Shown: positions 9,333-47,800, counted from the stretch's first letter. The stretch is DNA of 64,000 nt from an uncultured Desulfobacterales bacterium (GCA_964647585.1 CAZYGG010000001.1:99373-163372), one strand, 5' to 3'. Numbers and translations: made by a program. Notes: generated by a model from the letters alone, not told the origin.

Positions 9333-9459
9333 GGGTTCAAGGATTCGAGGGTTCAAGGGTTCAAGTTTTTTTCTCCAAGCTTTTAATTAGCGCCTTAAGC
9401 ATTTCTTTAAAAGATTCCAGCATTCACTTGAGCCCTCGGCCCCTTGACCCCTTGAATCC
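9333..9459. repeat. Word-repeat hairpin element, family A (GGGTTCAAGG/GGTTCGAGG words), two arms plus a ~60-nt core
   Basis: The left arm GGGTTCAAGGATTCGAGGGTTCAAGGGTTCAAG matches the reverse complement of the right arm CTTGAGCCCTCGGCCCCTTGACCCCTTGAATCC at 25 of 33 positions (hand alignment). It fills the pilB-pilC spacer. Confidence 0.8.
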
Positions 9460-9464
9460 TGCTT

Positions 9465-11168
9465 TTAAATCATTATCGCCGAGGCAGCTTCTTCAAAGGA
9501 AGTTTCGCCCCGATAAATTTTCTTGGCCGCATCTTCCCTCAGGGTTGTCAGCTTGCCCTTTGCAACCATGGCGCGCGTAATCTCCTGGGCCGTCCTTTTT
9601 TCGAGAACCATGTTCTGGACATCTTCATCAATCATCAGAATTTCATAGAGCCCGGTACGCCCCTTATAACCTTTGTCCATGCAGTAGAAACAACCGGTCC
9701 CCATGGAAAAATCCGCGGCGGCGTCATCTTGCAGCTGCCAGAATTCCAGGGCCGCCTCAGGTGGCTTGTGTGGCTTTTTACAATAGGGGCAAACCTTCCT
9801 GACCAGTCGCTGGGCGATGGAGGCCAGCATAACCGAGGAAACCAGGAAGGATTCAATGCCCATGTCCAGGAACCGGGTAATGGCACCGGCCGCGTCATTG
9901 GTATGCACCGTGCTGAGCACCCGGTGTCCGGTCAAGGCCGCCTGGACGCCGATGGTGGCGGTTTCACCGTCACGTATCTCACCGACCATAATGACGTCCG
10001 GGTCCTGCCGCAGCACAGCCCGCAGGCCGCTTGCGAAGGTCATGCCCGCTTTGCGATTAAATTGAATCTGCCTTACCTTCTCCATCCGGTATTCAACCGG
10101 ATCTTCAAAAGTGATGATATTGATATCCGGCTTGTTGATGATCTTCAAAAGCGAATAGATGGTGGTGCTTTTCCCGCTACCGGTTGGTCCGGTGCTCAGC
10201 ACCATCCCATACGGTTTGACGATCACCTCTTCAATTTTCTGCCGGTCCCTGGCGGCCATCCCCAGCTGCTCCAGGGAGTAGACGCCGCTGCTCGTATCCA
10301 GCAGACGGATAACCATGTTTTCACCATAAATGGTCGGCATTGTCGAGGTACGGATATTGATTTCCCGATTGTCCATTTTAATGGTGAATCTGCCGTCCTG
10401 GGGTATCTTGGAAAGCGCAATGTCCATGTTGGACAGGATTTTCAAGCGTGAAATGATCAGCAGGATCATCGATTTGGGCGGCGCCGGCACTTCGTGCAGC
10501 CGGCCGTCCACCCGGAAGCGAACCTGGACGTAATCCTTCTCGGGGCTGATGTGCACGTCACTGGCACCTTCCCGGACCGCCTGGGAGAGAATGGAGTTCA
10601 CCAGCCTGACGACCGGGGCTTCCTGGACCATATCCTGCAGGGAGCCGACTTCAACCTCATCGGAAAAGTCGGTTCTTTCAGGTTCATCATCCTTTTCAAT
10701 CTCCATTTCCTCGATAACACCACCGATACCTGAATAAGTCCCGTAAAGGCTGCCCACAAGGTGGTTAAGCTGTTGATCGGTACAGATCACCGCCTCAATT
10801 TCGGTATTCGTATACACCTCCAGGGCATCCAGGGCGGCTATATCCATGGGATCCACCATGGCAACCGTCAGCAAAAAACGGCTGCGCACCAGGGGGGCCA
10901 CCTGGTATTTTGTGGCCACGTCCACTGGAATTGTTTTGGACAGTTCCATATCAATCGGATACTTATCCGGGCGGTACTTTTCGATATGCAGCTGCACGGA
11001 AACCAGATCCGCGATCTGGTTGCCGCTCACATAGCCTTCCCGGACCAGGTATTGCCCCATTTTAAGCTTGGTTTTTTTATGCCCTTCTATGACTTCTTCA
11101 AGCTGGGCCGCGGTTAACAGGCCGCCCTCAACCAGCATTGCACCAAGTCGTTTTTTATCTCTCGCCAT
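9465..11168 (-). CDS. pilB: Type IV pilus extension ATPase (PilB/MshE/GspE family) with an N-terminal MshEN-type domain
   Basis: Walker A GPTGSGKST and tetracysteine CPYC...CFYC. The N-terminus carries RLGAMLVEGGLLTAAQLEEVIEGH and KMGQYLVREGYVSGNQIADLVSVQ. Confidence 0.9.
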   Translation of the reverse strand: MARDKKRLGAMLVEGGLLTAAQLEEVIEGHKKTKLKMGQYLVREGYVSGNQIADLVSVQLHIEKYRPDKYPIDMELSKTIPVDVATKYQVAPLVRSRFLLTVAMVDPMDIAALDALEVYTNTEIEAVICTDQQLNHLVGSLYGTYSGIGGVIEEMEIEKDDEPERTDFSDEVEVGSLQDMVQEAPVVRLVNSILSQAVREGASDVHISPEKDYVQVRFRVDGRLHEVPAPPKSMILLIISRLKILSNMDIALSKIPQDGRFTIKMDNREINIRTSTMPTIYGENMVIRLLDTSSGVYSLEQLGMAARDRQKIEEVIVKPYGMVLSTGPTGSGKSTTIYSLLKIINKPDINIITFEDPVEYRMEKVRQIQFNRKAGMTFASGLRAVLRQDPDVIMVGEIRDGETATIGVQAALTGHRVLSTVHTNDAAGAITRFLDMGIESFLVSSVMLASIAQRLVRKVCPYCKKPHKPPEAALEFWQLQDDAAADFSMGTGCFYCMDKGYKGRTGLYEILMIDEDVQNMVLEKRTAQEITRAMVAKGKLTTLREDAAKKIYRGETSFEEAASAIMI

Positions 11169-11183
11169 ATATCTGTCCAGTCT

Positions 11184-12887
11184 TCAACTGATACCCGGGC
11201 ACGGGTTAGCGTAAAACACCGCGTCCTTTTCCCATCCCGGAATAATATCACTTTTCAGCCGCACCTCCTCAGGCAGTTTGGCCAGGTACCGGGCGGCTTC
11301 GTCCTTTGACGAAAAGTACGTCCAAAATATGATATCAAAGCGCAACCCCTGAGCCGGATGCCAGTAAGGGATCATCCGCAGGGGCGCCGCCCTGGTCGAA
11401 TGCCGGCGGATCATGTCGAGTGCCTCCGAAACAGTTTCCACGCTGCCAACCCGGATCCATTCAAGATAATCCGGCACGTGCAGCCCTGCATGCGCCTGGG
11501 CCGGGAAGGCTATGGCCTGCCCCTTAAAAATATTGTTCAGGTCTTCCAGACCTGGGTTGCCGGCCACTATCGCCCGGCGTCCCCGGTGCGTGTATTCACC
11601 ATAGACCTTGATCATCACCCAGGAAAGGGTCTCATCAGCCTGCATCCTGATCATTCCCAGGGTTTGCGGCCGGGTCCGGACAGCCATGACCACCGGTTCA
11701 GCCGCTGCGACAACATCTACCGGCGGCAACTCAGCTGCGGGAACTTCCTTATTTACCGGGTCACGGGCGACCGCCGGCTCGCCTTCCGTCAACTTTGCAG
11801 CGGTTTCGATACCCGGCGGCGATCCTTCCGGTTTCTCACCCGGGGCACTGGCCGGGGTCGGTGCAAGGGGCGGCGCATGCGCTGCTACCGGGTAAGGCGC
11901 GGGGTTGTCCCCCACGCTTTTATTTTTTGCCGGCAACACCTCTTTGATTACCGGGTCACGCGTGACCTTTGCTTTCTCCGGCATGAAACCGGTATAGGCG
12001 ATCCCGGCCACACCGGCTACAACCATCAGGGCCCCGAAGGCTTTTTGCCATCCGCCGGACCGCTTGGCAGAGCCCCTGTTGACACATGAACTTACCAGAC
12101 GCCAGCCTGCTCTTTTCCTGTTTTTAACAATCATTGCCAGCATAATCCGGTGGCAAAGATTCACTATTTTACGGGGATATCCCTGCGTCGCCCGATAGAT
12201 GGCTGCCACCGCCGGGAAACTCAGCAGGCTGCCCAGACTGCCTTCCGCCCCCGCTTTTTGAAGGCGGTAATCAATCATAAGCCTGGTATCCCGGAATCCA
12301 AGGGGGCCCAACACGTGGAGCAGGTTTATTCTATCCGCGAAATTCGCGTGCTTTTCAAGGATCTGTTCAAACTCGCGCTGCGCAAAAATAACAATCTGCA
12401 GCAGCTTGAATTCGTTGGTTTCATAGTTGAGCAATTCCCGCAGTATTTCCAGGATCGGGGCCGGAATTTTCTGGCCTTCATCGATAATCAGGACCACAAC
12501 CCGGTTTTCTTCTACCCCCCTTTTATACAGGTACTGCTTGATGAACTCCTTGTAGTCGGCCCAGTCTCCGGTGGGAACTTTCGGCTCGCGCTCGAACATC
12601 CCGGCCACAACCTTTAAAAAAGCCGCCGGATCGGTCATGTGGGGGTCCAGGATCAGGTGGGTCTCAAACTCCTCATCCCGGCTGAATTTCTTGATCATCT
12701 GCCGGCACAACGTTGTCTTACCGGTGCCCACCTCCCCGATGACGACGTTCAGTCCCCGGCGCAGGCGCAAAGACAGTTCAAGTTTCTGCAGGCACTCCTT
12801 GTGCTGCCTTGATTTAAAAAAATAATCAGGATCCGGTGAATTGGAAAACGGTTCCCTTTCTAAGTTCAGAAGTTTGAAGTATTCCAT
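11184..12887 (-). CDS. ExeA/GspA/MshM-like AAA ATPase with a Pro-rich linker and C-terminal LysM-like and SPOR-like regions
   Basis: GEVGTGKTTLCRQM Walker A and VLIIDEGQ Walker B. A TM segment (ALMVVAGVAGIAY) is followed by a PAP-rich linker. Then ETLSWVMIKVYGEY...GNPGLEDLNNIFKGQAIAFP fits the LysM pattern. Confidence 0.75.
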   Translation of the reverse strand: MEYFKLLNLEREPFSNSPDPDYFFKSRQHKECLQKLELSLRLRRGLNVVIGEVGTGKTTLCRQMIKKFSRDEEFETHLILDPHMTDPAAFLKVVAGMFEREPKVPTGDWADYKEFIKQYLYKRGVEENRVVVLIIDEGQKIPAPILEILRELLNYETNEFKLLQIVIFAQREFEQILEKHANFADRINLLHVLGPLGFRDTRLMIDYRLQKAGAEGSLGSLLSFPAVAAIYRATQGYPRKIVNLCHRIMLAMIVKNRKRAGWRLVSSCVNRGSAKRSGGWQKAFGALMVVAGVAGIAYTGFMPEKAKVTRDPVIKEVLPAKNKSVGDNPAPYPVAAHAPPLAPTPASAPGEKPEGSPPGIETAAKLTEGEPAVARDPVNKEVPAAELPPVDVVAAAEPVVMAVRTRPQTLGMIRMQADETLSWVMIKVYGEYTHRGRRAIVAGNPGLEDLNNIFKGQAIAFPAQAHAGLHVPDYLEWIRVGSVETVSEALDMIRRHSTRAAPLRMIPYWHPAQGLRFDIIFWTYFSSKDEAARYLAKLPEEVRLKSDIIPGWEKDAVFYANPCPGIS

Positions 12888-12920
12888 TTCTCTACAAAGC
12901 CCTACCCGCGACGGCTGGGT

Positions 12921-14423: not shown

Positions 14424-14540
14424 TTTAATAGATCTCTTTTTCTGAATTGTCTGTAAGATGCAACCCCTCAATTTCCCTGAGAATTCTGAGTGAAATCCCT
14501 TTAGCATGCGCCCTTTTACCTATAGTTCCCAGGCGTTTAG

Positions 14541-14571
14541 GCCCGGCCCTCTTGAACCCTCGAACCCTTCA
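14541..14571. repeat. Family A word-repeat, single arm
   Basis: GCCCGGCCCTCTTGAACCCTCGAACCCTTCA lies in the pilP-like/pilQ spacer and uses the same words as 9427-9459 and 39159-39193. Confidence 0.7.
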
Positions 14572-14577
14572 TGGTCA

Positions 14578-15093
14578 CTACTTGGCCGTTTCATCAATGG
14601 GAACCACGATGACACTCTTATTCGCGTCCACGTAGATGTGGACCTCCCCCGCCGATATCTTCTTCAGGGCTGCTGTGCCTTGAGTGTCAAGCTGGTCCCC
14701 CTCCTGGTATTCCATACCGTTGATAATCGCCAGCTTGCTTTTTCCCATTTCCATATAACCCGAATAGTTAAAAGACCCGGTCAAATCTCCGCGGGCAATA
14801 ATCTCCGGCTCTTTTTCGGTCTCCGCGTCAGCTGCCCCGGATTTCTTGACGACCAGAAATGGGTCTTTCTTCCATTGAGCCGAAGATTTTTCCAGGATTT
14901 CCCTATCTTTCGCTGTGGTGTCAGCCCCCTGAATGCGCTTGATCAAACCGGCCACGAATTCGTTTACCTCAACCGACGGCTTTCCGGAAGACTTATTTTT
15001 ACCGCCCGTAGAGCCTGAAAAAAGAAAAGTGTAGCCCCCGTACAATATGGCCGCAACCATCAGACCGACGATTATTTTTTCCCGATTAGACAT
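14578..15093 (-). CDS. PilP/MshK/GspC-like small pilus assembly protein (N-terminal TM)
   Basis: 171 aa with N-terminal IIVGLMVAAILYGGYTFLF. The C-terminal beta-rich KLAIINGMEYQEGDQL...ISAGEVHIYV resembles the PilP/GspC HR domain. Its position directly upstream of the secretin fits. Confidence 0.55.
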   Translation of the reverse strand: MSNREKIIVGLMVAAILYGGYTFLFSGSTGGKNKSSGKPSVEVNEFVAGLIKRIQGADTTAKDREILEKSSAQWKKDPFLVVKKSGAADAETEKEPEIIARGDLTGSFNYSGYMEMGKSKLAIINGMEYQEGDQLDTQGTAALKKISAGEVHIYVDANKSVIVVPIDETAK

Positions 15094-15097
15094 TTAG

Positions 15098-15142
15098 CCT
15101 TTAACCCTTGAATCCTTGACCCCTCGGCCCCTTGAATCCTTC
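15098..15142. repeat. Family A word-repeat, single arm filling the pilO-like/pilP-like spacer
   Basis: CCTTTAACCCTTGAATCCTTGACCCCTCGGCCCCTTGAATCCTTC. Confidence 0.7.
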
Positions 15143-15665: not shown

Positions 15666-15721
15666 AAATACCGTTTCCTGGGTTAAATAGTGTCCATCCA
15701 TGAGTGTATATCATGGATGAA

Positions 15722-15794
15722 GGTGTTAGCTTTTAGCAATTAGGTATTAAAAAATACAGGTTAAATACAGCGCATTGCCTAACTGCTAACCGCC
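15722..15794. repeat. Word-repeat hairpin element, family H (TTAGC words)
   Basis: GGTGTTAGCTTTTAGCAATTAGGTATT faces GCATTGCCTAACTGCTAACCGCC in the pilMN/pilO-like spacer. Confidence 0.55.
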
Positions 15795-15840
15795 TATGGC
15801 CAATAGCTCCATCCTGAAATCTTTGATTTATGGATGGTCA

Positions 15841-17754: not shown

Positions 17755-17770
17755 CGGATGAGCGAATCCC

Positions 17771-17810
17771 TATAATTTGGTATAATTTTATATAATTTAC
17801 TATATTCACC
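17771..17810. repeat. Four phased 10-bp units (TATAATTTgg TATAATTTta TATAATTTac TATATTcacc)
   Basis: Direct reading of the sequence. It sits in the divergent spacer between pilMN and the histidine kinase gene. Confidence 0.8.
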
Positions 17811-20761: not shown

Positions 20762-20767
20762 CAGGGA

Positions 20768-21796: not shown

Positions 21797-21807
21797 GTGA
21801 GTAATCA

Positions 21808-21990
21808 GGTGTTCAGGTCGAAGGCTGAAGACTGAAGGAAAACCTCACGTGCCCTACCAAGGGCCTGTGAAACTTTTGTAAAAAATCCCGGGCAAGAGGG
21901 TGGCGTAAACCTATGGTACCCCGATTCAAGACGCAAAGCCTTACCGCTTTTAAGCTTTTACTTCAGACTTCAGTCTTCAACCTTAACCCC
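21808..21990. repeat. Word-repeat hairpin element, family C (CTGAAGA/CTGAAGG words)
   Basis: GGTGTTCAGGTCGAAGGCTGAAGACTGAAGG faces CTTCAGACTTCAGTCTTCAACCTTAACCCC with a ~110-nt core between them. Confidence 0.75.
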
Positions 21991-22066
21991 TTGATACGTA
22001 CTTTCAGACATAACTTAATTCCGCTAATATAGCCCTATTCCCAGGGAGATAAAGGAGGACACTTAA

Positions 22067-22519: not shown

Positions 22520-22605
22520 GCGTTAGTTTCGAGCTAAACCCCTGCCTTAGGTGGAGGACCTGGCGAGGTTCTCGACCAATCCTGGGAAAAAAGACCAGAA
22601 GATCA

Positions 22606-22732
22606 AATATCCAACAAGGAATGTCCAATGTCCAAGTAAGGAAGCGCTGCGCGCTACTGGTTTTGAACTTTTCAAAACAGCAGGATACCTTACTTGAAAA
22701 TTGGACATTGGGCATTGGAAATTGGATATTCG
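22606..22732. repeat. Word-repeat hairpin element, family B (ATCCAACA/ATGTCCAA words) with nested inner stems
   Basis: AATATCCAACAAGGAATGTCCAATGTCCAAGTAAGG faces CCTTACTTGAAAATTGGACATTGGGCATTGGAAATTGGATATTCG. The core holds GTTTTGAA-ctt-TTCAAAAC. It lies between convergent genes. Confidence 0.8.
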
Positions 22733-22739
22733 CTTTTAA

Positions 22740-23687: not shown

Positions 23688-23787
23688 GGTACCCTCCGAT
23701 TAAAAAATTTTAGTCAGCCTTTAAAACCTGGACTTCAAATTCAGTTCAGAGAAAATTGGCTATGACGTGAAAATTGGCGACCAGTGC

Positions 23788-23906
23788 CTAAAGTGAACTA
23801 AAGTTTGAAGTGAACTAAAGTTAAGGAATCCTGCCAGTTTGATTCAATCAGTGGAGCGCAGCGACGCATTAACTTTAGTCACTTTAGATCACTTTAGTCA
23901 CTTCAC
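23788..23906. repeat. Word-repeat hairpin element, family D (CTAAAGTGAA words)
   Basis: CTAAAGTGAACTAAAGTTTGAAGTGAACTAAAGTTAA faces TTAACTTTAGTCACTTTAGATCACTTTAGTCACTTCAC. Confidence 0.8.
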
Positions 23907-23974
23907 TCTCATCGGTTATGAGTTGTAAGCCCTTCCAGGGACAACTCAAAGCCTGGCCCTCTATGCCTGATTCT

Positions 23975-24664: not shown

Positions 24665-24813
24665 CTATAAAAGCCTTTTTGTCGGGCGTCTTGTCCGGCG
24701 AAGCTTTCGTAGCGAAGACGGAAGCTCAAAAAGCGAAAACTGATCGGCCCGACTGCTGCGTTGGGCGCTCAATCCAAATCCACCAGTGTTGCGTCTCATA
24801 AAGCTCCTTACTC

Positions 24814-24866
24814 ATTTGAATTTTGAATTTGTTTCGAACTTCGTGCTTTGTATTTTGGATTTAGTT
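24814..24866. repeat. Family G repeat copy (TTGAATTT/TTCGAA words)
   Basis: TTTGAATTTTGAATTTGTTTCGAACTTCGTGCTTTGTATTTTGGATTT is near-identical to the reverse complement of 47745-47795. Confidence 0.7.
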
Positions 24867-30396: not shown

Positions 30397-30594
30397 GTGG
30401 GAAAAATAGAAAAGGAAGTCGCCGACAAGGGGGGCCGTCGCCTGGGAATCGACCGTCGCCAGGTGGAGATCGAGGATGCCGTGGAAGAGGATAAGCGTGC
30501 AAACGGGGAACGCCGCCACCGCGGCGACCGGCGCGACGGCTATTCCTATAAACAAGATGAGTCCGAACGCAGGGAATCTTTCCGGATAAAATAA
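30397..30594 (+). CDS. Small (65 aa) Arg/Glu/Asp-rich protein with repeated DRR/ERR motifs
   Basis: GGAGG lies 5 nt before GTG 30397. The ORF is followed by a hairpin terminator. GIDRRQ, GERRHRGDRRDG and ESERRE motifs. No recognised family. Confidence 0.45.
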   Translation: MGKIEKEVADKGGRRLGIDRRQVEIEDAVEEDKRANGERRHRGDRRDGYSYKQDESERRESFRIK

Positions 30595-30626: not shown

Positions 30627-30667
30627 TAAAAAAAGCCCAGGCTTGAACAGCCCGGGCTTATTTTTTG
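30627..30667. terminator. Bidirectional Rho-independent terminator between the small ORF and tRNA-Leu
   Basis: AAAAAAAGCCCAGGC-ttgaaca-GCCCGGGCTTATTTTTT is a GC-rich stem with A-run and T-run flanks. Confidence 0.65.
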
Positions 30668-30754
30668 TGGTGCCGAAGAGAGGACTCGAACCTCCACCTG
30701 TATACACAGACTAGACCCTGAACCTAGCGCGTCTACCAGTTCCGCCACTTCGGC
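30668..30754 (-). tRNA. tRNA-Leu (anticodon CAG), CCA encoded
   Basis: The reverse complement reads GCCGAAGTGGCGGAACTGGTAGACGCGCTAGGTTCAGGGTCTAGTCTGTGTATACAGGTGGAGGTTCGAGTCCTCTCTTCGGCACCA. It has a 7-bp acceptor stem, a TTCAGGG anticodon loop, a long variable arm and a GGTTCGAGTCC T-arm. Confidence 0.9.
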
Positions 30755-30758
30755 AGGT

Positions 30759-30900
30759 GAGATCTTTTAAAAATCCCCCCTTTTGCCCTGTTTCTGCGTT
30801 GGTCTCAAATTTTAATCCTCGAAATACTCAATGTATTCCTCCGGTTAAAATTTTCGTCCGCCTTGAAATAAAACAAAATTGGGCATTTTTAAAAGATCTC
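30759..30900. repeat. Perfect 16-bp inverted repeat pair (GAGATCTTTTAAAAAT / ATTTTTAAAAGATCTC) 110 bp apart
   Basis: Direct reading at 30759-30774 and 30885-30900. It starts 5 nt upstream of the tRNA 5' end. Confidence 0.85.
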
Positions 30901-31933: not shown

Positions 31934-31985
31934 AGTGCCGAAAGTGGTTGAAGCCATCTCAAAACGGATTTTGACTCAAGGTCAA

Positions 31986-32013
31986 TTTCACTTCAAACTT
32001 TAATTCACTTTAG
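31986..32013. repeat. Family D word-repeat, single arm
   Basis: TTTCACTTCAAACTTTAATTCACTTTAG matches the reverse complement of 23788-23824 at 26 of 28 positions (hand alignment). Confidence 0.7.
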
Positions 32014-33675: not shown

Positions 33676-33720
33676 TTAGGACTCGTAAATATCAATAATT
33701 ATAGTTACACTGCCTCATTA

Positions 33721-33905
33721 GGATTCAAGGGTTCAAGGGTTCGAGGGTTCGAGGGGCCAAGTGAAATGCTGAAAGGCTTTTAAAAGCATATCTCAAAGGG
33801 ATGCGCATGGCCGACAATAAAACCTAATAATAATTAAAGCTTGTCCCCTTGACTACCCAGCATGGCCTCTGGCGAAAACAAGACCCTTCGAATTCTGGAA
33901 CCCTT
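33721..33905. repeat. Family A element with the same core as 9333-9459 and a degenerate right arm
   Basis: Left arm GGATTCAAGGGTTCAAGGGTTCGAGGGTTCGAGGGGC. The core AATGCTGAAAGGCTTTTAAAAGCA...TAATTAAAGCTTG parallels the reverse complement of 9366-9424. Confidence 0.7.
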
Positions 33906-33923
33906 TCCTTTTGAAAGGCAAAA

Positions 33924-36226: not shown

Positions 36227-36311
36227 AGATCCTGGCATAGAGGGCCAGGCTTTGGGTTGCCCCTGGAAGGGGCTTGGTTCTTACACCAGCAAGTTGAAAG
36301 TGCCAAAAAAA

Positions 36312-36491
36312 ACGAACATCCAACATTCAACATCGAACGTCCAACATCGAAAAAGGACTGAAGCTTTGCTTCGCTGATTTATAGACCCTACAGGGCTTTA
36401 TAACCACTTGAGACGATTCGTGTTTAACTGGTCGCCGAAGGCGTACCTCAATTCAATGTTCAATGTTGAGTGTTCGATGATGAATGTTCAG
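36312..36491. repeat. Word-repeat hairpin element, family B-like (CATCCAACAT/CATCGAAC words)
   Basis: ACGAACATCCAACATTCAACATCGAACGTCCAACATCGAA faces AATTCAATGTTCAATGTTGAGTGTTCGATGATGAATGTTCAG. Confidence 0.8.
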
Positions 36492-36578: not shown

Positions 36579-37574
36579 ATGATTTATAAGATACTGAAAA
36601 TATTGTTTCTTGTATCAATATTCATCGTCGGCGCCGGCGCCAGCGCCTACCTGACACTCACCCTGATCATCAAGGGTGAAGAGACCGTTGTGGTACCTGC
36701 GCTGCAAGAAAAAGAGGTGGTCTACGCCCTTCAGATCCTCAGTGACCTGGGCTTGAACACCCGGATAAAAGCCTCCCGGTACAGTGCCACCGTCCCTGCC
36801 AATCACATCATCGCGCAAGAGCCTGGTCCCGGCGCGGAAATAAAAAAGGGCCGGAATATCAAGCTGGTGATCTCAAAGGGCCAGCTGTCCGTACCCACCC
36901 CGCAAGTGACCGGCCTGTCGCTCAGCCAGGCCCTGATCATCCTTGAGGAAAGCGGGATTTGTCCGGGAACCCGTTCCCATTCAACCCATGTCGATCTGCC
37001 GGCAGGCGCCATCATTGCCCAGTCACCGCCACCCGGCGTGGTCATCAATCGGCAAAACTGCGTGGACCTGTTGATAAGTTCCGGGCCTTACCAGGAAGCG
37101 TTCGCCATGAACGACCTGACCACCCTGCCAGTGGACGACGCCATCCTTAAAATTGAATCCGGGAATCTGAAACTGGGCAATATATCCACGTCTGCAACCC
37201 GGGACGTTCCCCTGAACACGGTCGTTGGCCAGACACCGCCGGCTGGATACCGGGTCGTCCCCGGCCAGGCAGTGCACCTGGATGTCAACCGGGCCCGTCC
37301 AACCAGCGGTCAGTCCGCAGAAGCCGCCCGGCGCAAGGTCTGGTTCTATCGCTACCGAACCGGTACGGGTTTTCTTAACACGCATATAAAAGTCCGGATT
37401 AACAGCAAATTGTTTTCATATACGCTTTTTGATGATTTCATGCCGCCGGATACAGATCTAATTTTTTTAATACCGCGCTTTGAAAATATCACCGTTATGC
37501 TATATGAAGACGGAGCGTTGATAAAAACAATCTTTCCCGGCAGCCACCTGACGGACATTCAAGCATTCAGGTAG
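36579..37574 (+). CDS. Membrane-anchored protein with three PASTA domains (no kinase or PBP domain)
   Basis: MIYKILKILFLVSIFIVGAGASAYLTL TM, then three ~65-aa PASTA-like repeats ending in KLVISKG, DLLISSG and HLDVNR. The 36408 start would translate the repeat arm. Confidence 0.75.
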   Translation: MIYKILKILFLVSIFIVGAGASAYLTLTLIIKGEETVVVPALQEKEVVYALQILSDLGLNTRIKASRYSATVPANHIIAQEPGPGAEIKKGRNIKLVISKGQLSVPTPQVTGLSLSQALIILEESGICPGTRSHSTHVDLPAGAIIAQSPPPGVVINRQNCVDLLISSGPYQEAFAMNDLTTLPVDDAILKIESGNLKLGNISTSATRDVPLNTVVGQTPPAGYRVVPGQAVHLDVNRARPTSGQSAEAARRKVWFYRYRTGTGFLNTHIKVRINSKLFSYTLFDDFMPPDTDLIFLIPRFENITVMLYEDGALIKTIFPGSHLTDIQAFR

Positions 37575-37577
37575 ATA

Positions 37578-37658
37578 GACTGTAGGCATTTAGGCTATAG
37601 GGAAAAACATACCGCCGTTGACTGTGAAACCTAATAGTCTTCAGCCTACAGCCTAAAC
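37578..37658. repeat. Word-repeat hairpin element, family E (CTGTAGGC/TTTAGGC words)
   Basis: GACTGTAGGCATTTAGGCTATAGGG faces CCTAATAGTCTTCAGCCTACAGCCTAAAC. Confidence 0.75.
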
Positions 37659-37684
37659 AACCTGAATATTACAGGAGAAGGTTT

Positions 37685-38341: not shown

Positions 38342-38362
38342 GTTATCACGAACTTAATACCT

Positions 38363-38482
38363 GTCATTCTGAGGAGTGAAACCAGGCTTCGCTGGAAGCT
38401 ACGCCCGACGGGGAACGAAGAATCCCTTATTATAAATCATGGCCGCGGCATGCGGGATACTCTTCGCTACGCTCAGAGTGAC
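38363..38482. repeat. Inverted pair of GTCAyTCTGAG...CGAAGAnTcCC units
   Basis: GTCATTCTGAGGAGTGAA...CGAAGAATCCC faces GGGATACTCTTCGCTACGCTCAGAGTGAC. Confidence 0.7.
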
Positions 38483-38544
38483 GAGATATAAAAACATATT
38501 AACTGATTTCACAAAAGGTCACACAATACGGGAGCCTGAAACCT

Positions 38545-38982: not shown

Positions 38983-39222
38983 ATATCCAACAAGGAATGT
39001 CCAAATGAAACCAGGATCCAAGGGGTCAAGGGGCCGAGGGTTCTAGTGAGCCCCTGCGGGGCTGAAACCTAAGACCACTGGATGCCGGATCAAAGTCCGG
39101 CATGACGGTCTCTTTATTCCAAATAACAGAATAACTCACTTGGATTGGGATTGATTTTCCCTCGAACCCTCGAACCCTTGACCCCTTGAACCCTTGCTTT
39201 GTTGGATATTGGATATTCGATC
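38983..39222. repeat. Composite nested element: family B outer arms, family A inner arms and a conserved GTCATGCCGGA hairpin in the core
   Basis: Outer arms at 38983-39007 and 39197-39222. Inner arms at 39014-39043 and 39159-39193. Core hairpin CTGGATGCCGGATCAAAGTCCGGCATGAC at 39078-39106. Confidence 0.8.
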
Positions 39223-39224
39223 TT

Positions 39225-40571: not shown

Positions 40572-40734
40572 ATCAATTCAGTAAAATACCTTAACCCTGG
40601 CCCAGACCGATTACCCATACTGTTGGCGATAAAGCAAGGCGTGGAATAATTTGCCTGCTATCCCCGCAAATATTACATTCGCGCCAGGGCGGGCTTTAGA
40701 TCAATTCTAACTTTAGGTGACTGCAATCACAAAT

Positions 40735-41418: not shown

Positions 41419-41451
41419 CCCAATAATCTCCGGTATGTATATACTCCAACA

Positions 41452-41546
41452 GTTTTAAGTTTTAGGTGTTAGGTGTTAGGTGTTAAGAAAAACATAAAAT
41501 ATCGTTAGAACAACCACTTAAAACTTAACACCCAACACTTAAAACA
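41452..41546. repeat. Word-repeat hairpin element, family F (GGTGTTA x3 / AGTTTTA words)
   Basis: GTTTTAAGTTTTAGGTGTTAGGTGTTAGGTGTTAAG faces CTTAAAACTTAACACCCAACACTTAAAACAC. Confidence 0.8.
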
Positions 41547-41548
41547 CT

Positions 41549-42775: not shown

Positions 42776-42786
42776 GGGTAAAGCCT

Positions 42787-43013
42787 GTTTTAAGTTTTAT
42801 GTGTTAAGTGTTAAGAGAACAAAAATCCGAAATCCGAATATCGAATTCCTAAACAAATTATAAATCCAAATGCCTCAATGACCTAAACAAACCCCTTACC
42901 GACAAACCAAAATAACAGATTGTTTGTCCCTTTTGAATTTCTGCCATTCGATATTGTTTGCGGCGTTTGCCTTGAGAACATTCCGAATTTCAAAATTCGG
43001 GCTTCGGATTTTC
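42787..43013. repeat. Compound repeat: family F half-arm plus family G arms
   Basis: GTTTTAAGTTTTATGTGTTAAGTGTTAAG comes first. Then AAAATCCGAAATCCGAATATCGAATTCC faces CATTCCGAATTTCAAAATTCGGGCTTCGGATTTTCC. Confidence 0.75.
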
Positions 43014-43083
43014 CTTACGTCTAAACTCTATCGTAGCAACGGTACCAATAAAGAAATCAATAGTGGATCATCCGCAGTCACCC

Positions 43084-44316
43084 TCAGGTATACGTCAGCG
43101 CATCCACCGGTTTTAATTTTTTGATTTTCAGGGCCGGGTAAAGGGCCGCGCACACGGTGATCATAAACACCAGCGCCGGTCCCGTTACAATCGAAAACCA
43201 GGTCAGCCGCGGATACAGAGCGCCGGATATCCCGTATTGCTTCAGCATTTCCGAACTGCCGGCCAGGACAATCCCGTGGACCTGGAAATACCAGGTCAGG
43301 ATAATGCCCAGCCCGATGCCGGTGAAAATCCCCACCAGGGTCATCAGCATCGACTCCAGCATGACCATTTTCACCAGTTTGCCGGGTGTCGTGCCCAGGG
43401 CCATCATCACCCCGAACTCCCGGGTCCTCTCCAGGATGGCCATGAGAAAGGTGTTCAGGATGCTGAAAGCCACAACGAGAATCAGAATCACGTAAATGAT
43501 CAGGCCGCTCACCAGGTCCATGGCGATTCCCTGGGCCAGGCCGGGGAGCAGATCCATCCAGTCCAGGACCACCAGGTCGTCCGCCAGGTTTTCGTCCGCA
43601 ATCTCCTTCTCGAGCGCCTGCTTGACACCGTGGACATCGGCCAGGGACTGAACGGTGACCACGATCTCATGGACATTACCTTCCAGGGTAAAGACATCCT
43701 GGAAATAACCCAGCGGCACGTGGATCGCACTCCGGTCAAAATCGTCCATGCCGGAACTGTAGACCCCTTTTACCGTAAAAACGGCCGCTGCCACGGATCC
43801 GTCGCTTCCCTGCCCCAGGACAGTGAGTTCGTCGCCGATATCCACCTGCAGGTTCTTCGCCAGCAGCTGTCCGATGAGGGCCACGTCGGTGTCCGCCGCT
43901 TCCAGGTAGCGCCCTTTCCGGATCAGCTTGCGCAGGGTGGAGGTCGCCGCCTCTCGCCGCGGGTCAATTCCGATAACCAGGGCTCCGTAGGTTCTTTCCG
44001 CCGACGACACAAGTGAGAAGGCGTTGCCCCGTTCCGTTCGGGCGGTCACGGCGGGCAGTTCCCGGATGGCCGCCAGCATCTTTTCAGGGTGGTGCACCAT
44101 CTGCCGGATCTGTCGTTTTTCGTGATACCCTTTGGCCTGGATCTGCAGGTGCCCGGTGTGGATTCCCACGGAGGCATTGATCATCGTGTCGTAAGTGCCG
44201 ATCTGGAAGCTCAGCATGAACACCAGCAGGATGCAGGCGAAAGCAATCGCGGCGATGGTCAGCAGCGTGCGCCTTCTGTTGCGCCAGATGTTGCGCCAGC
44301 CCATTTTGAGGTTCAT
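43084..44316 (-). CDS. ABC transporter permease (FtsX/LolC-E/MacB type), paralogue of 41549-42775
   Basis: 410 aa with the same architecture. N-terminus MNLKMGWRNIWRNRRRT compares with MHFQLSWRNIWRNPRRT. Confidence 0.85.
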   Translation of the reverse strand: MNLKMGWRNIWRNRRRTLLTIAAIAFACILLVFMLSFQIGTYDTMINASVGIHTGHLQIQAKGYHEKRQIRQMVHHPEKMLAAIRELPAVTARTERGNAFSLVSSAERTYGALVIGIDPRREAATSTLRKLIRKGRYLEAADTDVALIGQLLAKNLQVDIGDELTVLGQGSDGSVAAAVFTVKGVYSSGMDDFDRSAIHVPLGYFQDVFTLEGNVHEIVVTVQSLADVHGVKQALEKEIADENLADDLVVLDWMDLLPGLAQGIAMDLVSGLIIYVILILVVAFSILNTFLMAILERTREFGVMMALGTTPGKLVKMVMLESMLMTLVGIFTGIGLGIILTWYFQVHGIVLAGSSEMLKQYGISGALYPRLTWFSIVTGPALVFMITVCAALYPALKIKKLKPVDALTYT

Positions 44317-44377
44317 GGTCGCTTCCTTTTATCTCTTCACCCTGCTCTTAAACTTAGCCCGATTCTTGGTTTTTACC

Positions 44378-44533
44378 GTCCTGCCGGACCCCGATCCGGC
44401 ATCCAGCCTTATTGAGATTGCTATCGGGATCCGTATTCGATTTCTATCCTGACTCTATGACTGGGGAAAGGCCCGGCACACTATTACTACAGTAAAACAA
44501 GCCCCTGGATCCCGGCCTACGCCGGGATGACAA
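44378..44533. repeat. Inverted pair of GTCnTGCCGGA...TCCGGCATCCAG-type hairpin units
   Basis: GTCCTGCCGGACCCCGATCCGGCATCCAGCC (44378-44408) faces CCCCTGGATCCCGGCCTACGCCGGGATGACAA (44502-44533). Confidence 0.7.
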
Positions 44534-44544
44534 CCTCTACCTCC

Positions 44545-45312
44545 CTACCTTCCCGGGTTCTTCAAGGCCGCCAGGGTAAACCGACGATCTTTCAGGACAA
44601 CGTCAAACGAAAGGGATACATATTCAACCAGCGTATACTCCTCCGGGCTTTCCGCCTTGTACATCTTCATCACCCGCGGCAGCAGCCGGTTCCCCAGCAT
44701 TTCCACCTGGCTGAATTCCAGGATCTTCACCGGTGCGAGGTCCTCGTCGTAGAAAATTTCTTCTACGGGAACCAGGTCCTCCCGGATCTTAAACGTCAGC
44801 ATCCCCCAGATGACCGCCGCCTCCGGTTTGGGTATGGATTTGATCAGGTAAACGGTCTGTCCCGCCTGGATCTCCTTGCCGGTGAGCGTGTGGTCATAGT
44901 CATCGATCACACTGTCGGATTTGGCCAGGTCGTTATTGGAAAAGTCGGACCCCATCCAGGCCCGGGCCATCATGGAGGGCGGCAGCTGGATCACCCGGTT
45001 GACCTTGGGGTTGAACGTCCACATGTTTTTGTCGAGTTTCAAGGTGCCGTTGCCCTTGTCCTTGGGGGGCGCCATGAGGGTAAAAAGGCTGTCCTTCTCC
45101 CCCCGGGTCCAGACTTTGATCCGGCTCACCCGCTGCCATTCCGGCCGGTGCACGGTCATCTCCACAGTCGACACAGATGTTTTTCCGCGCATATAGTTGA
45201 GATTGCCACGAATCAGTTGACTGGCTGTCGGTTCTCCGGCCATTGAGTGACCGGTTGGCAACAGTCCTATGGTCAACAGTGCGATGCTAAAAAAGAACCG
45301 ATAAGATCTCAT
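44545..45312 (-). CDS. LolA-like outer-membrane lipoprotein-sorting-protein-family periplasmic protein
   Basis: Signal peptide (FFFSIALLTIGLLPTGHSMA). The family pattern RGKTSVSTVEMTVHRPEWQR...LFTLMAPPKDKGNGTLKLDKNMW fits. GGAG RBS before ATG 45312. Confidence 0.65.
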   Translation of the reverse strand: MRSYRFFFSIALLTIGLLPTGHSMAGEPTASQLIRGNLNYMRGKTSVSTVEMTVHRPEWQRVSRIKVWTRGEKDSLFTLMAPPKDKGNGTLKLDKNMWTFNPKVNRVIQLPPSMMARAWMGSDFSNNDLAKSDSVIDDYDHTLTGKEIQAGQTVYLIKSIPKPEAAVIWGMLTFKIREDLVPVEEIFYDEDLAPVKILEFSQVEMLGNRLLPRVMKMYKAESPEEYTLVEYVSLSFDVVLKDRRFTLAALKNPGR

Positions 45313-45461
45313 GTCTCGTCTCCTTTGAATGCAGCCGGACTCTGTCAACGGGTGTATGAGGCATTTAACACTATAACCTGATTATTCGTCAAGTGACCGG
45401 GCAATGCATTTGTTTATCATTATGAAGTTGACTTATTCATTTTTCTATGTAAATTGAAGTT

Positions 45462-46622
45462 ATGTATCGCAGACTGATTAAAAAACCAATTGCTCAAAAC
45501 AGGAGTTTCTTCCTGTTCGGGCCAAGGGGTACGGGTAAGACTACCTGGATTAAAAGTGTCTTCCCAGAGGCTCTCTATCTAGATCTGCTGGAATTTGACC
45601 TGTATAATGATTTACTGGCACGTCCGGGACGGTTGGAAAGTTTAATTCCCCCCGGTTTTCACGACTGGATTATTCTCGACGAGATCCAACGCATACCGGA
45701 TTTACTCAATGAAGTCCATCGCTTAATAGAAAACCTGAATCTCAAATTTGTTTTGACAGGTTCCAGTGCCAGGACACTCCGGAAAAAGGGAGTCAACCTG
45801 CTCGCCGGGCGTGCTTTGACGTACCGAATGTATCCTCTCACCGCCATTGAGCTGGGTAACGATTTCAAGTTGGAAAATTCGTTAAAATGGGGCCATCTGC
45901 CATCAATTTCTTCCGAAAATGAACCAGGTTTGTATTTAAAAGCGTACGTGCAAACCTATCTGCGTGAAGAAGTCCTCCAGGAGGGTTTGACAAGGAACCT
46001 GGGCAGTTTTTCACGTTTTCTCGAAACAGCTTCATTCTCCCAGGGAGCCGTACTGAACATTTCTGAAATAGCCAGAGAAGCCGGTATTGAAAGAATGCGG
46101 ATTACCAGTTATTTTTCGATACTTGAGGACTTGCTTCTCGCGTCCAGGCTGCCGGTCTTTACAAAAAGGGCAAAGCGTAGAGTAACCGTGCATCCCAAAT
46201 TTTACTATTTTGATGTGGGTGTTTTCCGATCGCTGCGCCCCATGGGACCTCTGGATTCTCCGGCAGAAGCCGAAGGTCCCGGTCTTGAAACTCTATGCTA
46301 TCAAGAACTATCGGCCATCAACGACTATTACAAATATGGATACAACCTTTATTACTGGCGAACCGGTAACGGTGTTGAGGTCGATTTCATACTTTATGGC
46401 TCCAGAGGTCTGCTCGCTTTTGAAATTAAACGATCCAACCGTTTTTCAACTAAAGACTTAAGAGGTTTAAAACTGTTTTCAAGTGATTACCCGGAGGCAA
46501 AATTATATTTTCTATATGGCGGCTCAAGGGAACAATACGAAAACAATGTTACCATAATACCGATTGAAAAGGCTCTAAAAATGCTGCCGGAAATTCTGGA
46601 AAATAACGCTTCCGCCCCCTGA
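45462..46622 (+). CDS. AAA+ ATPase (AAA_14 / DUF4143-type)
   Basis: FLFGPRGTGKTT Walker A and WIILDEIQ Walker B. The C-terminal EVDFIL...FEIK pattern is typical of DUF4143. Confidence 0.75.
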   Translation: MYRRLIKKPIAQNRSFFLFGPRGTGKTTWIKSVFPEALYLDLLEFDLYNDLLARPGRLESLIPPGFHDWIILDEIQRIPDLLNEVHRLIENLNLKFVLTGSSARTLRKKGVNLLAGRALTYRMYPLTAIELGNDFKLENSLKWGHLPSISSENEPGLYLKAYVQTYLREEVLQEGLTRNLGSFSRFLETASFSQGAVLNISEIAREAGIERMRITSYFSILEDLLLASRLPVFTKRAKRRVTVHPKFYYFDVGVFRSLRPMGPLDSPAEAEGPGLETLCYQELSAINDYYKYGYNLYYWRTGNGVEVDFILYGSRGLLAFEIKRSNRFSTKDLRGLKLFSSDYPEAKLYFLYGGSREQYENNVTIIPIEKALKMLPEILENNASAP

Positions 46623-46774
46623 TTTAATAAAAGGAAAACAAAATTATACCGGCTCCCATTCAAACCTGGAACATTGCCTCCAGACAAAAACTTATCATCG
46701 CGGGCCCCTGCAGCGCCGAATCGGCAGCACAGGTTCTGAACACCGCCCGGGAACTGGCCCGCTGTAAAATCGAT

Positions 46775-47722
46775 GTGCTGCGCGCCGGTATCTGGAAACC
46801 GCGGACCATGCCAGGCACATTCGAAGGGGTCGGTGAAACCGGTCTGGCCTGGCTGGCACAGGCCAAAAAGGAGACCGCCCTGCCGGTCACCGTGGAGGTG
46901 GCGACCCCCTCACATGTTGAAGCGTGCCTGCGCCATGGAATCGACTTGCTCTGGATCGGTGCCCGCACGACCGTAAATCCCTTTTCAGTACAGGCCATAG
47001 CGGATGCCCTGCGGGGGGTGGACATTCCGGTTATGGTGAAGAACCCCATCAATCCGGACCTCGATCTGTGGCTTGGCGCGGTTGAACGCCTGTCCCGGGC
47101 CGGTATCAAAAAGATTGCGGCCATTCACCGGGGCTTCTCATCAGCCACGGAAACCCTCTATCGCAACCGGCCGCACTGGACGATTCCCATCGAAATGAAG
47201 CTCCGGCATCCGGAAATCCCCCTTATCTGTGATCCCAGTCACATCAGCGGAGACGGCGAGCTGGTCTTTGATGTGGCGCAAAAGGCTATGGATCTGCTTT
47301 TTGACGGCCTGATGATCGAAGCTCATATCGCCCCCGAATCCGCCCTGAGCGATGCCCGCCAGCAGCTCTCCCCGGCCCGGCTGGACCGGCTGCTGAAGAA
47401 AATAGAATTCAAGCGCGCCCATTCCGACAACATCGCTTTTGCCAGCACTCTTGAACAGCTTAGGGAAAAAATTGATGCGGCGGATGAAGCCGTCATCACG
47501 GCCCTGGCCAGACGGATGGAGATCGTCGATGAAATCGGGCGGTATAAGCAGAGCAACAATGTTTCAATTTTGCAACCGGAGCGCTGGAATGAAATCCTGG
47601 TGAGCCGCATCGCGGCCGGGGTGCGGCGCAACCTGTCCGAACGGTTTATGCGGGAGCTGTATCGCTGCATCCATGCGGAATCCATTGAGCACCAGGAAGC
47701 GCAGATTAAAAAAGGAGATTGA
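46775..47722 (+). CDS. 3-deoxy-7-phosphoheptulonate (DAHP) synthase type I-beta fused to chorismate mutase. The N-terminus lies in another frame (see finding).
   Basis: LRAGIWKPRT, WIGARTTVNPF, VKNPINPDLDLW, DPSH, and a C-terminal CM_2-like LREKIDAADEAVITALARRMEIVDEIGRYK. The conserved IIAGPCSAES strand is encoded upstream at 46695-46724 in a different frame. Confidence 0.8.
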   Translation: MLRAGIWKPRTMPGTFEGVGETGLAWLAQAKKETALPVTVEVATPSHVEACLRHGIDLLWIGARTTVNPFSVQAIADALRGVDIPVMVKNPINPDLDLWLGAVERLSRAGIKKIAAIHRGFSSATETLYRNRPHWTIPIEMKLRHPEIPLICDPSHISGDGELVFDVAQKAMDLLFDGLMIEAHIAPESALSDARQQLSPARLDRLLKKIEFKRAHSDNIAFASTLEQLREKIDAADEAVITALARRMEIVDEIGRYKQSNNVSILQPERWNEILVSRIAAGVRRNLSERFMRELYRCIHAESIEHQEAQIKKGD

Positions 47723-47726
47723 TGAA

Positions 47727-47800
47727 TTTGCAAGAATCTGACACCGAATAAAAAATTCGAATATCGAAGCACGAATATCGAAACAAATTCGAAATCTTGC
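47727..47800. repeat. Family G repeat copy (TTCGAATAT words)
   Basis: CCGAATAAAAAATTCGAATATCGAAGCACGAATATCGAAACAAATTCGAAATC. Its reverse complement parallels 24814-24866. Confidence 0.7.

Follow-up and report, generated by a model that had tools for sequence, protein, structure and literature searches.

Tandem-word hairpins in operon spacers of an uncultured Desulfobacterales bacterium as probable gene-less relatives of PF05635 stem-loop cassettes

Results

Intergenic hairpins with tandem-word arms

We analyzed a 64,000-nucleotide (nt) stretch of DNA from an uncultured Desulfobacterales bacterium (GCA_964647585.1 CAZYGG010000001.1:99373-163372; hereafter, the window), a chromosomal segment with a GC content of about 0.50 whose intergenic regions contain hairpins with arms made of tandem copies of short words. 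The window encodes an operon resembling type II secretion and type IV pilus systems (T2SS/T4P), a two-component system, gidB and EF-G, and further along a run of genes in the order ribF-mprF-def-fmt-rsmB-PASTA-rpe-aroQ, which is followed by a MacB/FtsX ABC system and a DAHP synthase gene. The nearest genome in GTDB has an RsmB of just 53% identity, and relatives found in metagenome assemblies have Rpe proteins that are 83-100% identical to that of the window. Loci used for comparison are numbered with the prefix L.

Inverted repeats were identified with an ungapped seed-and-extend finder, requiring a score of at least 14 and a loop of at most 250. This yielded 8 strong inverted repeats in the window, compared to 0.1 ± 0.3 (maximum 1) in 30 dinucleotide shuffles, and all 8 were intergenic, with intergenic DNA making up 12.9% of the window. 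The arms had an internal period of 7, 8 or 10 in 7 of the 8 cases, the eighth being a non-periodic palindrome at 30759-30900. Tandem Repeats Finder (TRF) reported 15 arrays with a period of 7-8 and at least 2.9 copies, every one of them intergenic or within a false extension of an open reading frame (ORF); the words were GGGTTCAA, CTGAAGG, ATTGGAC, CTAAAGTGA, AACATCC, GTGTTAG and AAATCCG. In a repeat search, the longest inverted repeats of the window were these tandem-word arrays and their complements, for example 39008-39049/39158-39199 (42 nt, 81%) and 22598-22641/22688-22731 (44 nt, 77%). Ten paired elements had RNA minimum free energies (MFEs) corresponding to z-scores of -3.4 to -8.9 against dinucleotide shuffles (using the better-folding strand), with stem arms of 22-44 nt, a complementarity of 77-92%, each arm holding 3-5.6 copies of its word and the loop measuring 32-143 nt. 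The raw density of TRF arrays (period 6-10) fails to set the window apart from other loci; paired periodic inverted repeats are required for that.

The elements fall into seven word families, dispersed through the window and grouped by all-versus-all BLASTN of its intergenic regions: F1 (word GGGTTCAAGG; 9331, 9427, 14547, 15098, 33720, 39013 and 39159), F2 (CTGAAGG/CTGTAGGC; 21803 and 37566), F3 (ATCCAACA; 22607 and 38983, with 22 identical bases in common), F4 (CTAAAGTGA; 23788 and 31987), F5 (AACATCC; a single occurrence at 36311), F6 (GTGTTAG; 41452 and 42787) and F7 (AAATCCGAA/TTCGAAT; 24813, 42823 and 47767). An initial annotation of this DNA had proposed a class of intergenic hairpins of constant design with a different word in each family. 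Given the excess of inverted repeats, the folding beyond shuffled controls and the family structure found by BLASTN, this class is real. Its count of sixteen hairpin loci needs qualification, as about ten are paired hairpins and six are solo arms; one further candidate hairpin, at 15720-15820, folded no better than shuffles (z -0.03/-0.8) and was dropped. The annotation was also right in setting the elements apart from CRISPR: unlike the 23-47-nt direct repeats of CRISPR arrays, which alternate with unique spacers of similar size, the units here are contiguous, 7-10 nt long and without spacers.

Full-length relatives of two families enclose a PF05635 gene

A scan of metagenomes with GGGTTCRAGGGTTCRAG, from the F1 family, matched at least 120 stretches. 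Among the matches listed, there were 124 array instances, 36 of which had a complementary array within 300 nt. In 7 instances, again among the matches listed, the partner array lay at a distance of 378-594 nt, and all 7 enclosed an ORF of about 120-130 amino acids (aa) that was assigned to Pfam PF05635 ("23S rRNA-intervening sequence protein"; E-values of 1e-25 to 1e-41) and to NCBIfam TIGR02436 ("four helix bundle protein"), with weak similarity to Avd. The protein of L072 matches PDB entry 2GSC (Xanthomonas campestris XCC0516) with an E-value of 2.7e-25. The G-rich arm was the 5' arm in 43 and the 3' arm in 2 of the cases among the matches listed. This order is a chirality of the element that is invariant under strand reversal; the orientation of elements was taken from the asymmetry of loop or termini, not from the order of the arms.

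The layout of the F1 cassettes is constant. The G-rich array ends in ...CAAGTGAAATG, of which the ATG is the start codon, so that the start codon of the gene abuts the last word. The gene ends in ...MLKALIKSL..., and in the copies of L072, L140, L179 and L077 the C-rich array provides the TGA stop codon with its first CCTTGA word. Homologous genes are flanked by other words in L043 (GGCTGAAGG), L171 (GGATACAGAAGAC), L131 (GGTTCAGG) and L166 (GTTYAAGR). Gene-bearing copies occur in the GGGTTCAAGG and CTGAAGG families and in four further word families elsewhere. Intermediates of decay are also present: the copy in L170 is truncated, L171b is interrupted, and in a second, mini copy in L140 the start of the gene is fused to its last ~12 codons.

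For the F2 family, the gene lies between the same termini as those of two window elements, E2 and E7, in L043, L184 and L190. E2 (21803..21995, + strand, z -6.2) is a CTGAAGG-family hairpin with termini at 21803-21838 and 21961-21995. E7 (37566..37667, + strand, z -3.4) is a hairpin of the CTGTAGGC/CTGAAGG family that lies between PASTA gene and rpe, with the termini TTCAGGTAGATAGACTGTAGGC and CTTCAGCCTACAGCCTAAACAACCTGAAT, the left of which contains the TAG stop codon of the PASTA gene. The L043 protein belongs to a very large family of high conservation, with 7,097 matches at E ≤ 1e-10 out of 7,195 scored candidates, mostly on contigs shorter than 3 kb. Two 118-aa members of this family reside in separate genomic contexts, P0150 between AIRS and HIT genes (L182-L189) and P0239 between spermine synthase and GNAT genes (L190-L192), with cassette flanks that are nearly identical (left, ...CAGGTG.ATA.ACTGAAGGT...; right, ...CTTCAGCCTTC.GTCTTCAACCTAAATACCTGAGT). 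Both termini align with E7, with E2 and with their relatives in L056 and L060. E2 and E7 therefore share both termini with gene-bearing copies.

Two F1 elements of the window have loops that look like remnants of the gene. E1 (9328..9464, - strand, z -6.4/-3.5) is a GGGTTCAAGG hairpin between the T2SS-E and T2SS-F genes, with arms at 9331-9365 and 9427-9460. Its loop encodes, on the - strand, MLESFKEMLKALIKSLEKKT followed by a stop codon. Over the stretch 9402-9369, 27 of 34 positions agree with the gene profile at its 3' end, and the peptide ranked first among 668 intergenic peptides compared to the PF05635 hidden Markov model (HMM), with an alignment at the C-terminus and an E-value of 0.027; it was also the sole match when translated loops were searched with the HMM. 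E5 (33718..33908, + strand, z -3.8) lies between def and fmt and has a left arm at 33720-33757 and a decayed right arm at 33841-33905. In one global alignment, its loop resembles the start of the gene (AGTGAAATGCTGA) at 33760-33777 and the conserved NIAEGYGR region at 33788-33817. The cores of E1 and E5 are homologous to each other (65 nt, 75%, by BLASTN of the intergenic regions). The stretches at 9369-9402 and 33760-33817 are thus putative PF05635 gene remnants, and the matches, short as they are, gain weight because they occur at the expected place, on the expected strand and in the expected order. The initial annotation had described the cores as unrelated and the elements as encoding no protein. 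The former does not always hold, E1 and E5 being the exception found; the latter holds for the copies in the window, whereas the full-length relatives of two families encode the four-helix-bundle protein.

The gene-bearing copies are oriented with respect to their surroundings. Based on crude ORF calls, about 11 of the 13 copies with an intact or decayed gene have an upstream gene that runs in the same direction, as do all 4 window elements that could be oriented by loop or terminus asymmetry. Cassettes, in other words, lie co-directionally behind host genes.

We also rebuilt most of the XCC0516 sequence from the PDB alignment and used it to retrieve Xanthomonas homologs. In an assembly of X. 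campestris, an XCC0516-like PF05635 gene lies between accB and accC, flanked by GGGAATCGGGAGTGGAGAATCGGGAATCGG upstream and ATTCCCCATTCTCGACTCCCTATTCCC downstream, which are GGGAATC arrays and their complement. Judged by this shared arrangement, the gene-flanking arrays of X. campestris appear to be the same class of element as the window hairpins.

Insertion polymorphism and rapid turnover among relatives

The gene order ribF-mprF-def-fmt-rsmB-PASTA-rpe-aroQ-hyp-ABC-FtsX-FtsX is kept in syntenic relatives, with Rpe identities of 88% (L050), 89% (L053), 94% (L056 and L061) and 98% (L060), which allowed us to compare the element-bearing junctions directly. Most of these junctions, 110-374 nt long in the window, consist of overlapping genes or of 5-41 nt in L050 and L053; in L053, the def-fmt spacer is still 95 nt long and the one behind aroQ 119 nt, and neither holds a tandem-word hairpin. 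An ortholog of E7 is present in L056, with a loop enlarged to about 300 nt by further nested repeats, and absent from L060 and L061. The empty junctions at this site read cccggca/caggag and ccagg/agaac in L060 and L061, and these different boundaries point to independent deletions. L060 has an F2 copy after rpe rather than before it. At def-fmt, where the window has an F1 element, L056 and L061 have arrays of the word CTTAATC, with about 3 units in L056 and about 8 in L061. Words per arm likewise range from 2-3 in L184 to more than 8 in L043. The elements are thus lineage-specific insertions with rapid turnover, which close syntenic relatives lack at the same junctions, and their word copy number shifts between close relatives as replication slippage would predict.

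The distribution of contig ends fits multi-copy repeats as well, since Logan short-read contigs whose sequence is that of the window break off at repeat elements: L001 stops within E8 (38983..39224; see below), and L057 begins just past the left arm of E6 (36311-36351). Comparable periodic hairpins elsewhere numbered 4 in about 0.8 Mb of loci, including those of other Desulfobacterales; one is in a metagenome-assembled genome (MAG) of the Acidobacteriaceae. The families recur in numerous genomes and the design is widespread, yet it is strongly amplified in the lineage of the window.

Some families are also common in viruses. Hairpins of F4, F6 and F7 that hold no gene stand between phage genes in viral contigs, including CTAAAGTGA-word hairpins in L365/L379 (IMG/VR), which number 6 in 11 kb, long GGTGTTAGG arrays in L293, L300 and L345, and a AAATCCGAA hairpin in L211. 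Phage genomes are therefore also colonised by tandem-word hairpins, or make use of them. An F4 hairpin had no match in the annotated phage collection.

Remaining elements of the window

The other paired elements follow the same design. E3 (22598..22737, z -7.2/-8.5) is a ATCCAACA/ATGTCCAA-family hairpin with convergent genes on either side and arms at 22598-22641 and 22688-22731. E4 (23783..23907, z -8.1), with arms at 23788-23822 and 23871-23907, belongs to the CTAAAGTGA family, which was also found in L043 and in the viral contigs. E6 (36311..36490, z -4.1) is an AACATCC-family hairpin between rsmB and the PASTA gene, with arms at 36311-36351 and 36452-36488; L002 has a similar array, of the word CAACATT, downstream of its rsmB. 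E9 (41452..41546, z -5.3) is a GTGTTAG-family hairpin between the genes for the ABC ATPase and an FtsX permease, with arms at 41452-41487 and 41517-41545. E10b (42822..43012, z -3.7/-5.3), a AAATCCGAA/TTCGAAT-family hairpin with arms at 42822-42847 and 42981-43012, belongs to a family also found in L003 and in the viral contigs.

The annotation's report of single arms and nested copies is borne out by six solo arms and one triple nest. In the latter, E8 (38983..39224, z -8.9), outer arms of the ATCCAACA family (38983-39007 and 39197-39221) surround a GGGTTCAAGG-family hairpin (arms 39013-39049 and 39158-39199), which in turn contains a small GCCGGA hairpin repeat (39078-39109). The solo arms are two of the GGGTTCAAGG family, at 14547..14570 (- strand, G-rich in the sense of the - strand operon) and at 15098..15140 (- strand, 5.5 copies with a period of 8, immediately upstream of the start codon at 15093); one of the TTCGAAT/AAGCACGAA family at 24812..24862; one of the CTAAAGTGA family at 31983..32013, 96% identical to 23788-23814 in reverse orientation; one of the GTGTTAAG family at 42787..42815, 93% identical to 41452-41478; and one of the TTCGAATAT/AAGCACGAA family at 47756..47795.

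Two elements produce false N-terminal extensions, as had been proposed: the true start of the T2SS-F gene is ATG 9322 rather than TTG 9340, and that of the PASTA gene is ATG 36579 rather than TTG 36408, the extension from 36408 containing the right arm of E6.

Neighbouring repeats and other features

Several further repeats adjoin these elements or share their junctions. A dispersed 38-nt repeat, GGCCAGGCTTTGGGTTGCCCCTGGAAGGGGC with a small GC hairpin, occurs in inverted orientation at 23930-23967 and 36234-36271 (95% identical), both times adjoining a tandem-word hairpin, and L056 has a copy at about 9630-9670, inside the enlarged loop of the E7 ortholog. The small hairpin repeat inside E8, CTGGATGCCGGATCAAAGTCCGGCATGACGG, recurs at 44375-44406 (32 nt, 87.5%) and adjoins GTCATCCCGGCGAAGGCCGGGATCCAG at 10730-10800 of L056; we take it to resemble a widespread short palindromic repeat of many proteobacterial genomes. 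The rpe-aroQ spacer, which is 203 nt long in the window and 5-14 nt in L050/L053, holds a different hairpin at 38369-38491 (GTCATTCTGAGGAGTGAAAC ... CGCTCAGAGTGACGAG); the Logan contigs L057-L059 end in it, which suggests that it is multi-copy too. Just downstream of rsmB, at the same junction as E6, L007 (Desulfococcaceae) has nested perfect inverted repeats of 28 nt and 44 nt together with a 169-nt tandem duplication, at 5535-5772 and 5627-6023. The period-7 hairpin CAGGTCTTAGGTGTCAGGTCTTAGGTCTC / GAGTCCTGAGACCTGACACCTGAGACCTG at 8638-8930 of L034, from an Acidobacteriaceae MAG and hence a different phylum, has a loop of about 235 nt.

Two palindromes of the window have arms that are not tandem words. 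One, at 7967-8092, upstream of the T2SS-F gene region, is a 126-nt quasi-palindrome with 67% self-complementarity (z -5.9 on the + strand). The other is the 142-nt quasi-palindrome at 30759-30900, with the arms GAGATCTTTTAAAAATCCCCCCTTTTGCCC / GGGCATTTTTAAAAGATCTC and a z-score of about -10 to -12, which adjoins tRNA-Leu(CAG) (30668-30754) and is an insertion relative to L050, L053, L056 and L061, where 20-50 nt are found. Upstream of the same tRNA gene lies a conserved small ORF of 65-71 aa with a very basic/acidic product (MGKIEKEVADKGGRRLGIDRRQV...RRESF), at about 30397-30594 in the window, 3485-3700 in L053 and 1699-1896 in L056, which was missed by a 100-aa ORF cut-off and is followed in the window by a terminator-like hairpin at 30633-30659. 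In L056, tRNA-Leu adjoins an insertion of about 1.4 kb (1960-3440) that contains two small ORFs on the reverse strand and has, on its far side, a partial copy (12 nt) of the tRNA's 3' end (TGGTGCCGAAGA); this looks like a small integrated element that uses tRNA-Leu as attachment site.

Discussion

Proposed miniatures of an intervening-sequence type of cassette

We interpret the tandem-word hairpins of the window as miniature, gene-less derivatives of selfish PF05635 stem-loop cassettes of the intervening-sequence (IVS) type that reside in operon spacers, a reading to which we assign a probability of about 0.6. The full-length cassette would consist, from 5' to 3', of a purine- or G-rich array of 7-8-nt words, a PF05635/TIGR02436 gene of about 120 aa, and the complementary array. 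This would be the design of the S23p-encoding IVSs of 23S rRNA, here lodged between protein-coding genes. The IVS of Coxiella has been described as a 428-nt selfish element in helix 45 of 23S rRNA, with the S23p ORF in the loop and a stem formed by a 28-bp terminal inverted repeat that is cut by RNase III, and the S23p of Xanthomonas as a pentameric toroid (PMC4990558). Such IVSs, known from Coxiella burnetii and Leptospira, resemble the cassettes in having a PF05635 ORF in the loop of a long terminal-repeat stem, are part of the host transcript, and also exist in short versions without the ORF (PMC4990558). This is exactly the layout of the full-length F1 and F2 relatives. The window copies differ in that all lie between protein-coding genes rather than inside an rRNA helix, and that their ORF is lost (searches of the window with Rfam, at the gathering threshold and at E ≤ 1, gave tRNA-Leu, otherwise chance matches, and no rRNA). 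Their arms are arrays of 7-8-nt tandem words.

We propose that the element is transcribed by read-through within its host operon, and that RNase III would cut its imperfect stem of 25-45 bp, by analogy with the rRNA IVSs. The intercistronic sites of phage T7 are a precedent for RNase III cleavage between cistrons. Such cleavage would separate the cistrons of the polycistronic mRNA, with stubs of the stem remaining at the new ends, so that the insertion would be tolerated. Templating at the level of DNA, through quasi-palindrome correction, may keep the arms complementary, and slippage combined with such templating could generate tandem words in both arms. The PF05635 pentamer may act in trans on the arrays, for spread or for maintenance. 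That F3-F7 belong to the same class as F1 and F2 is something we infer from the shared design.

A number of observations weigh against this interpretation. The window itself contains no intact PF05635 gene, no gene-bearing copy was found for F3-F7 (ATCCAACA, CTAAAGTGA, AACATCC, GTGTTAG and AAATCCGAA), and about 2 Mb of viral-contig loci holding F4, F6 and F7 contained no PF05635 gene; the F3-F7 hairpins may form a class of their own that arose by convergence. The matches to gene remnants are short, and that of E5 comes from a single global alignment. With a gene-only DNA profile, nhmmer gave a weak match to E1 (E-value of 0.2 over the whole window) and none to E5 in the window. Sense and antisense MFEs were alike in 24 oriented metagenome hairpins (13 versus 11, p 0.38), and the window elements showed no strand difference either; considering that the sense strand has no folding advantage, the complementarity seems to come from templating by DNA and not from selection on one RNA strand. 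Finally, the check for target-site duplications that the annotation had suggested as evidence of mobility was negative, with no flanking direct repeat at 50+ F1 ends or in the comparison of filled and empty E7 sites. No transposase was found either, and mobility is suggested by distribution and polymorphism.

Alternative explanations

The elements could instead serve the host as RNA, for example as processing sites, stabilisers of 3' ends, terminators or insulators, with the arms shaped in place by slippage and selection for a long stem, and with PF05635 genes as occasional passengers. All copies do lie between the stop codon and the ribosome-binding site of co-transcribed genes and leave the latter intact, nesting into loops is common (E8, L056), and the dense gene-less copies between phage genes, along with the lack of a PF05635 gene near F4, F6 and F7 copies, fit this view. 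The repetitive extragenic palindromes (REP) and their composites (BIME, REPIN) are comparable, being short intergenic palindromes that often lie in operons, are targets of nested insertion and are thought to stabilise mRNA 3' ends. The window elements, however, lack the GTAG/CGTC tag of REP termini, have longer and internally repetitive arms, and have a full-length relative that encodes PF05635 rather than a RAYT transposase. Close relatives manage without elements at the same junctions, and at def-fmt the word differs by lineage, being GGGTTCAAGG in the window and CTTAATC in L056/L061. Beyond the missing sense-strand advantage, terminator-like sites are not enriched (23 versus 22.9 expected). 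The fit between F1 words and the start and stop codons of the gene also speaks against mere passengers, and the persistence of gene remnants in gene-less copies argues for descent from gene-bearing to gene-less forms. We consider a host-serving origin unlikely.

A binding role at the DNA level has been proposed for similar sites. In Geobacter metallireducens, putative IHF/HU sites come in pairs, and each site repeats a hepta-, octa- or nonanucleotide 3-5 times in tandem (Aklujkar et al. 2009, PMC2700814); like those of the window, the pairs lie on opposite strands at a variable distance, and they number tens of copies per genome and are confined to one species of the genus (PMC2700814). Their words GTTGCTYN, TCTCCGTS[Y] and MTYCTGA (PMC2700814), for which no pattern search was made, are not among the TRF words of the window. 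The window hairpins might, by extension, be arrays bound by a nucleoid-associated protein or global regulator. Their architecture fits classes 1-3 of Aklujkar et al., their complementarity is symmetric at the level of DNA, and the XCC0516 homolog is a pentameric toroid whose Avd homologs are known to bind nucleic acids. Nevertheless, the seven or more unrelated words found within 40 kb would each call for a protein of its own, close relatives have the same operons but not the elements, and an array may count as few as 2 or more than 8 words; binding is itself hypothetical, and on balance this explanation seems distinctly improbable.

We attach a similarly low probability to classical transposable elements of the miniature inverted-repeat type (MITEs), that is, insertion sequences shortened by deletion and mobilised in trans by a DDE or other transposase encoded elsewhere in the genome, for which the words would be subterminal binding sites. 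MITEs are gene-less derivatives that keep both termini, disperse, nest and break short-read assemblies, as the window elements do, and the latter have terminal inverted repeats whose outermost bases are conserved (AAGGGTTC...GAACCCTT and TCAGGT...ACCTGA), dispersed families and presence/absence polymorphism. Against this stand the missing target-site duplications, full-length forms that in every case found encode PF05635 and no recognisable transposase, and the lack of transposase genes among 30 window ORFs scanned against Pfam (8.1-47.7 kb). Regulatory repeats that form G-quadruplexes or i-motifs, as proposed for the GGGNATC heptamers of Xanthomonas and Nostoc, are highly improbable as a general account: F1 arms do hold (G3N5)n tracts (e.g., AAGGGTTCAAGGGTTCGAGGGTTCGAGGGG at 33727-33757) and Xanthomonas arrays of the same element class form G-quadruplexes in vitro (PMC4692102), but the ATCCAACA, CTAAAGTGA, AACATCC, GTGTTAG, AAATCCGAA and CTGAAGG families share the design without any G-tracts.

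Relation to published repeats

The initial annotation could not place the elements in a described family, which stands only in part, as the same architecture had been published for the Xanthomonas GGGAATC pairs and the Geobacter sites, and the gene-bearing form matches the IVS/S23p design. The GGGAATC heptamers that flank the X. campestris gene are those of which Rehm et al. (2015, PMC4692102) counted about 186 arrays in Xanthomonas, including 70-75 convergent inverted pairs per genome; like those of the window, these arrays are intergenic tandem words, convergent on opposite strands and capable of forming stem-loops, and they are length-polymorphic between species (PMC4692102). The words differ, and GGG tracts occur only in F1, the other six families having none. 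Rehm et al. read the arrays as G-quadruplex elements with no association with mobile elements; the text of PMC4692102 has no match to "four helix", "intervening" or "S23", and hence does not mention the PF05635 gene. The heptamers of cyanobacteria known as short tandemly repeated repetitive sequences (STRRs) and the TAACTGA repeats of Beggiatoaceae are also intergenic, tandem and present in many copies, mainly as direct arrays with one indirect set in "Maribeggiatoa", and neither hairpin pairing nor a link to PF05635 is reported for them (PMC4679880). No paper tying PF05635 genes to tandem-word arms was found in the limited library of open-access literature that was searched, and searches of the text of PMC4692102 and PMC4990558 brought up no such link. 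Similar arrays have thus been published twice before without PF05635, and as far as this literature goes the link is new here.

Implications for the PF05635 family

PF05635/TIGR02436 is a very large orphan family. To our knowledge, its only defined role so far is that of Avd in diversity-generating retroelements. PF05635 genes have also been reported inside cas operons (Zhang et al., PMC3936711), and the elements described here could be taken for regulatory sites or their genes for CRISPR-associated genes. They also have direct consequences for genome annotation: they inflate operon spacers, supply stop codons (as in the PASTA gene), create false start calls (9340 and 36408) and break short-read assemblies (the ends of L001 and L057-L059).

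A bolder extension of the cassette interpretation, which we regard as doubtful, is that the PF05635 cassettes constitute mobile elements of a new kind, which have no transposase and whose protein would recognise the tandem words and recruit a host polymerase or reverse transcriptase. The rRNA IVSs, the Xanthomonas GGGAATC pairs, the Geobacter sites, the window hairpins and possibly the STRRs would then form one superfamily with its miniatures. The pentameric four-helix-bundle protein, a homolog of Avd, could bind with each subunit on a single word, in which case the usual number of 3-5 copies would be explained, and the hairpin cassette would be copied into new transcribed spacers and rRNA helices.

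The rRNA IVSs, the heptamer arrays of Xanthomonas and cyanobacteria, and the Geobacter sites have each gone unexplained for 10-30 years. Our results suggest that all of them represent a single invasive cassette together with its miniatures. If so, these separate puzzles would become a single testable system, for which X. campestris, with a solved protein structure and a cassette in accB-accC, offers a tractable model.

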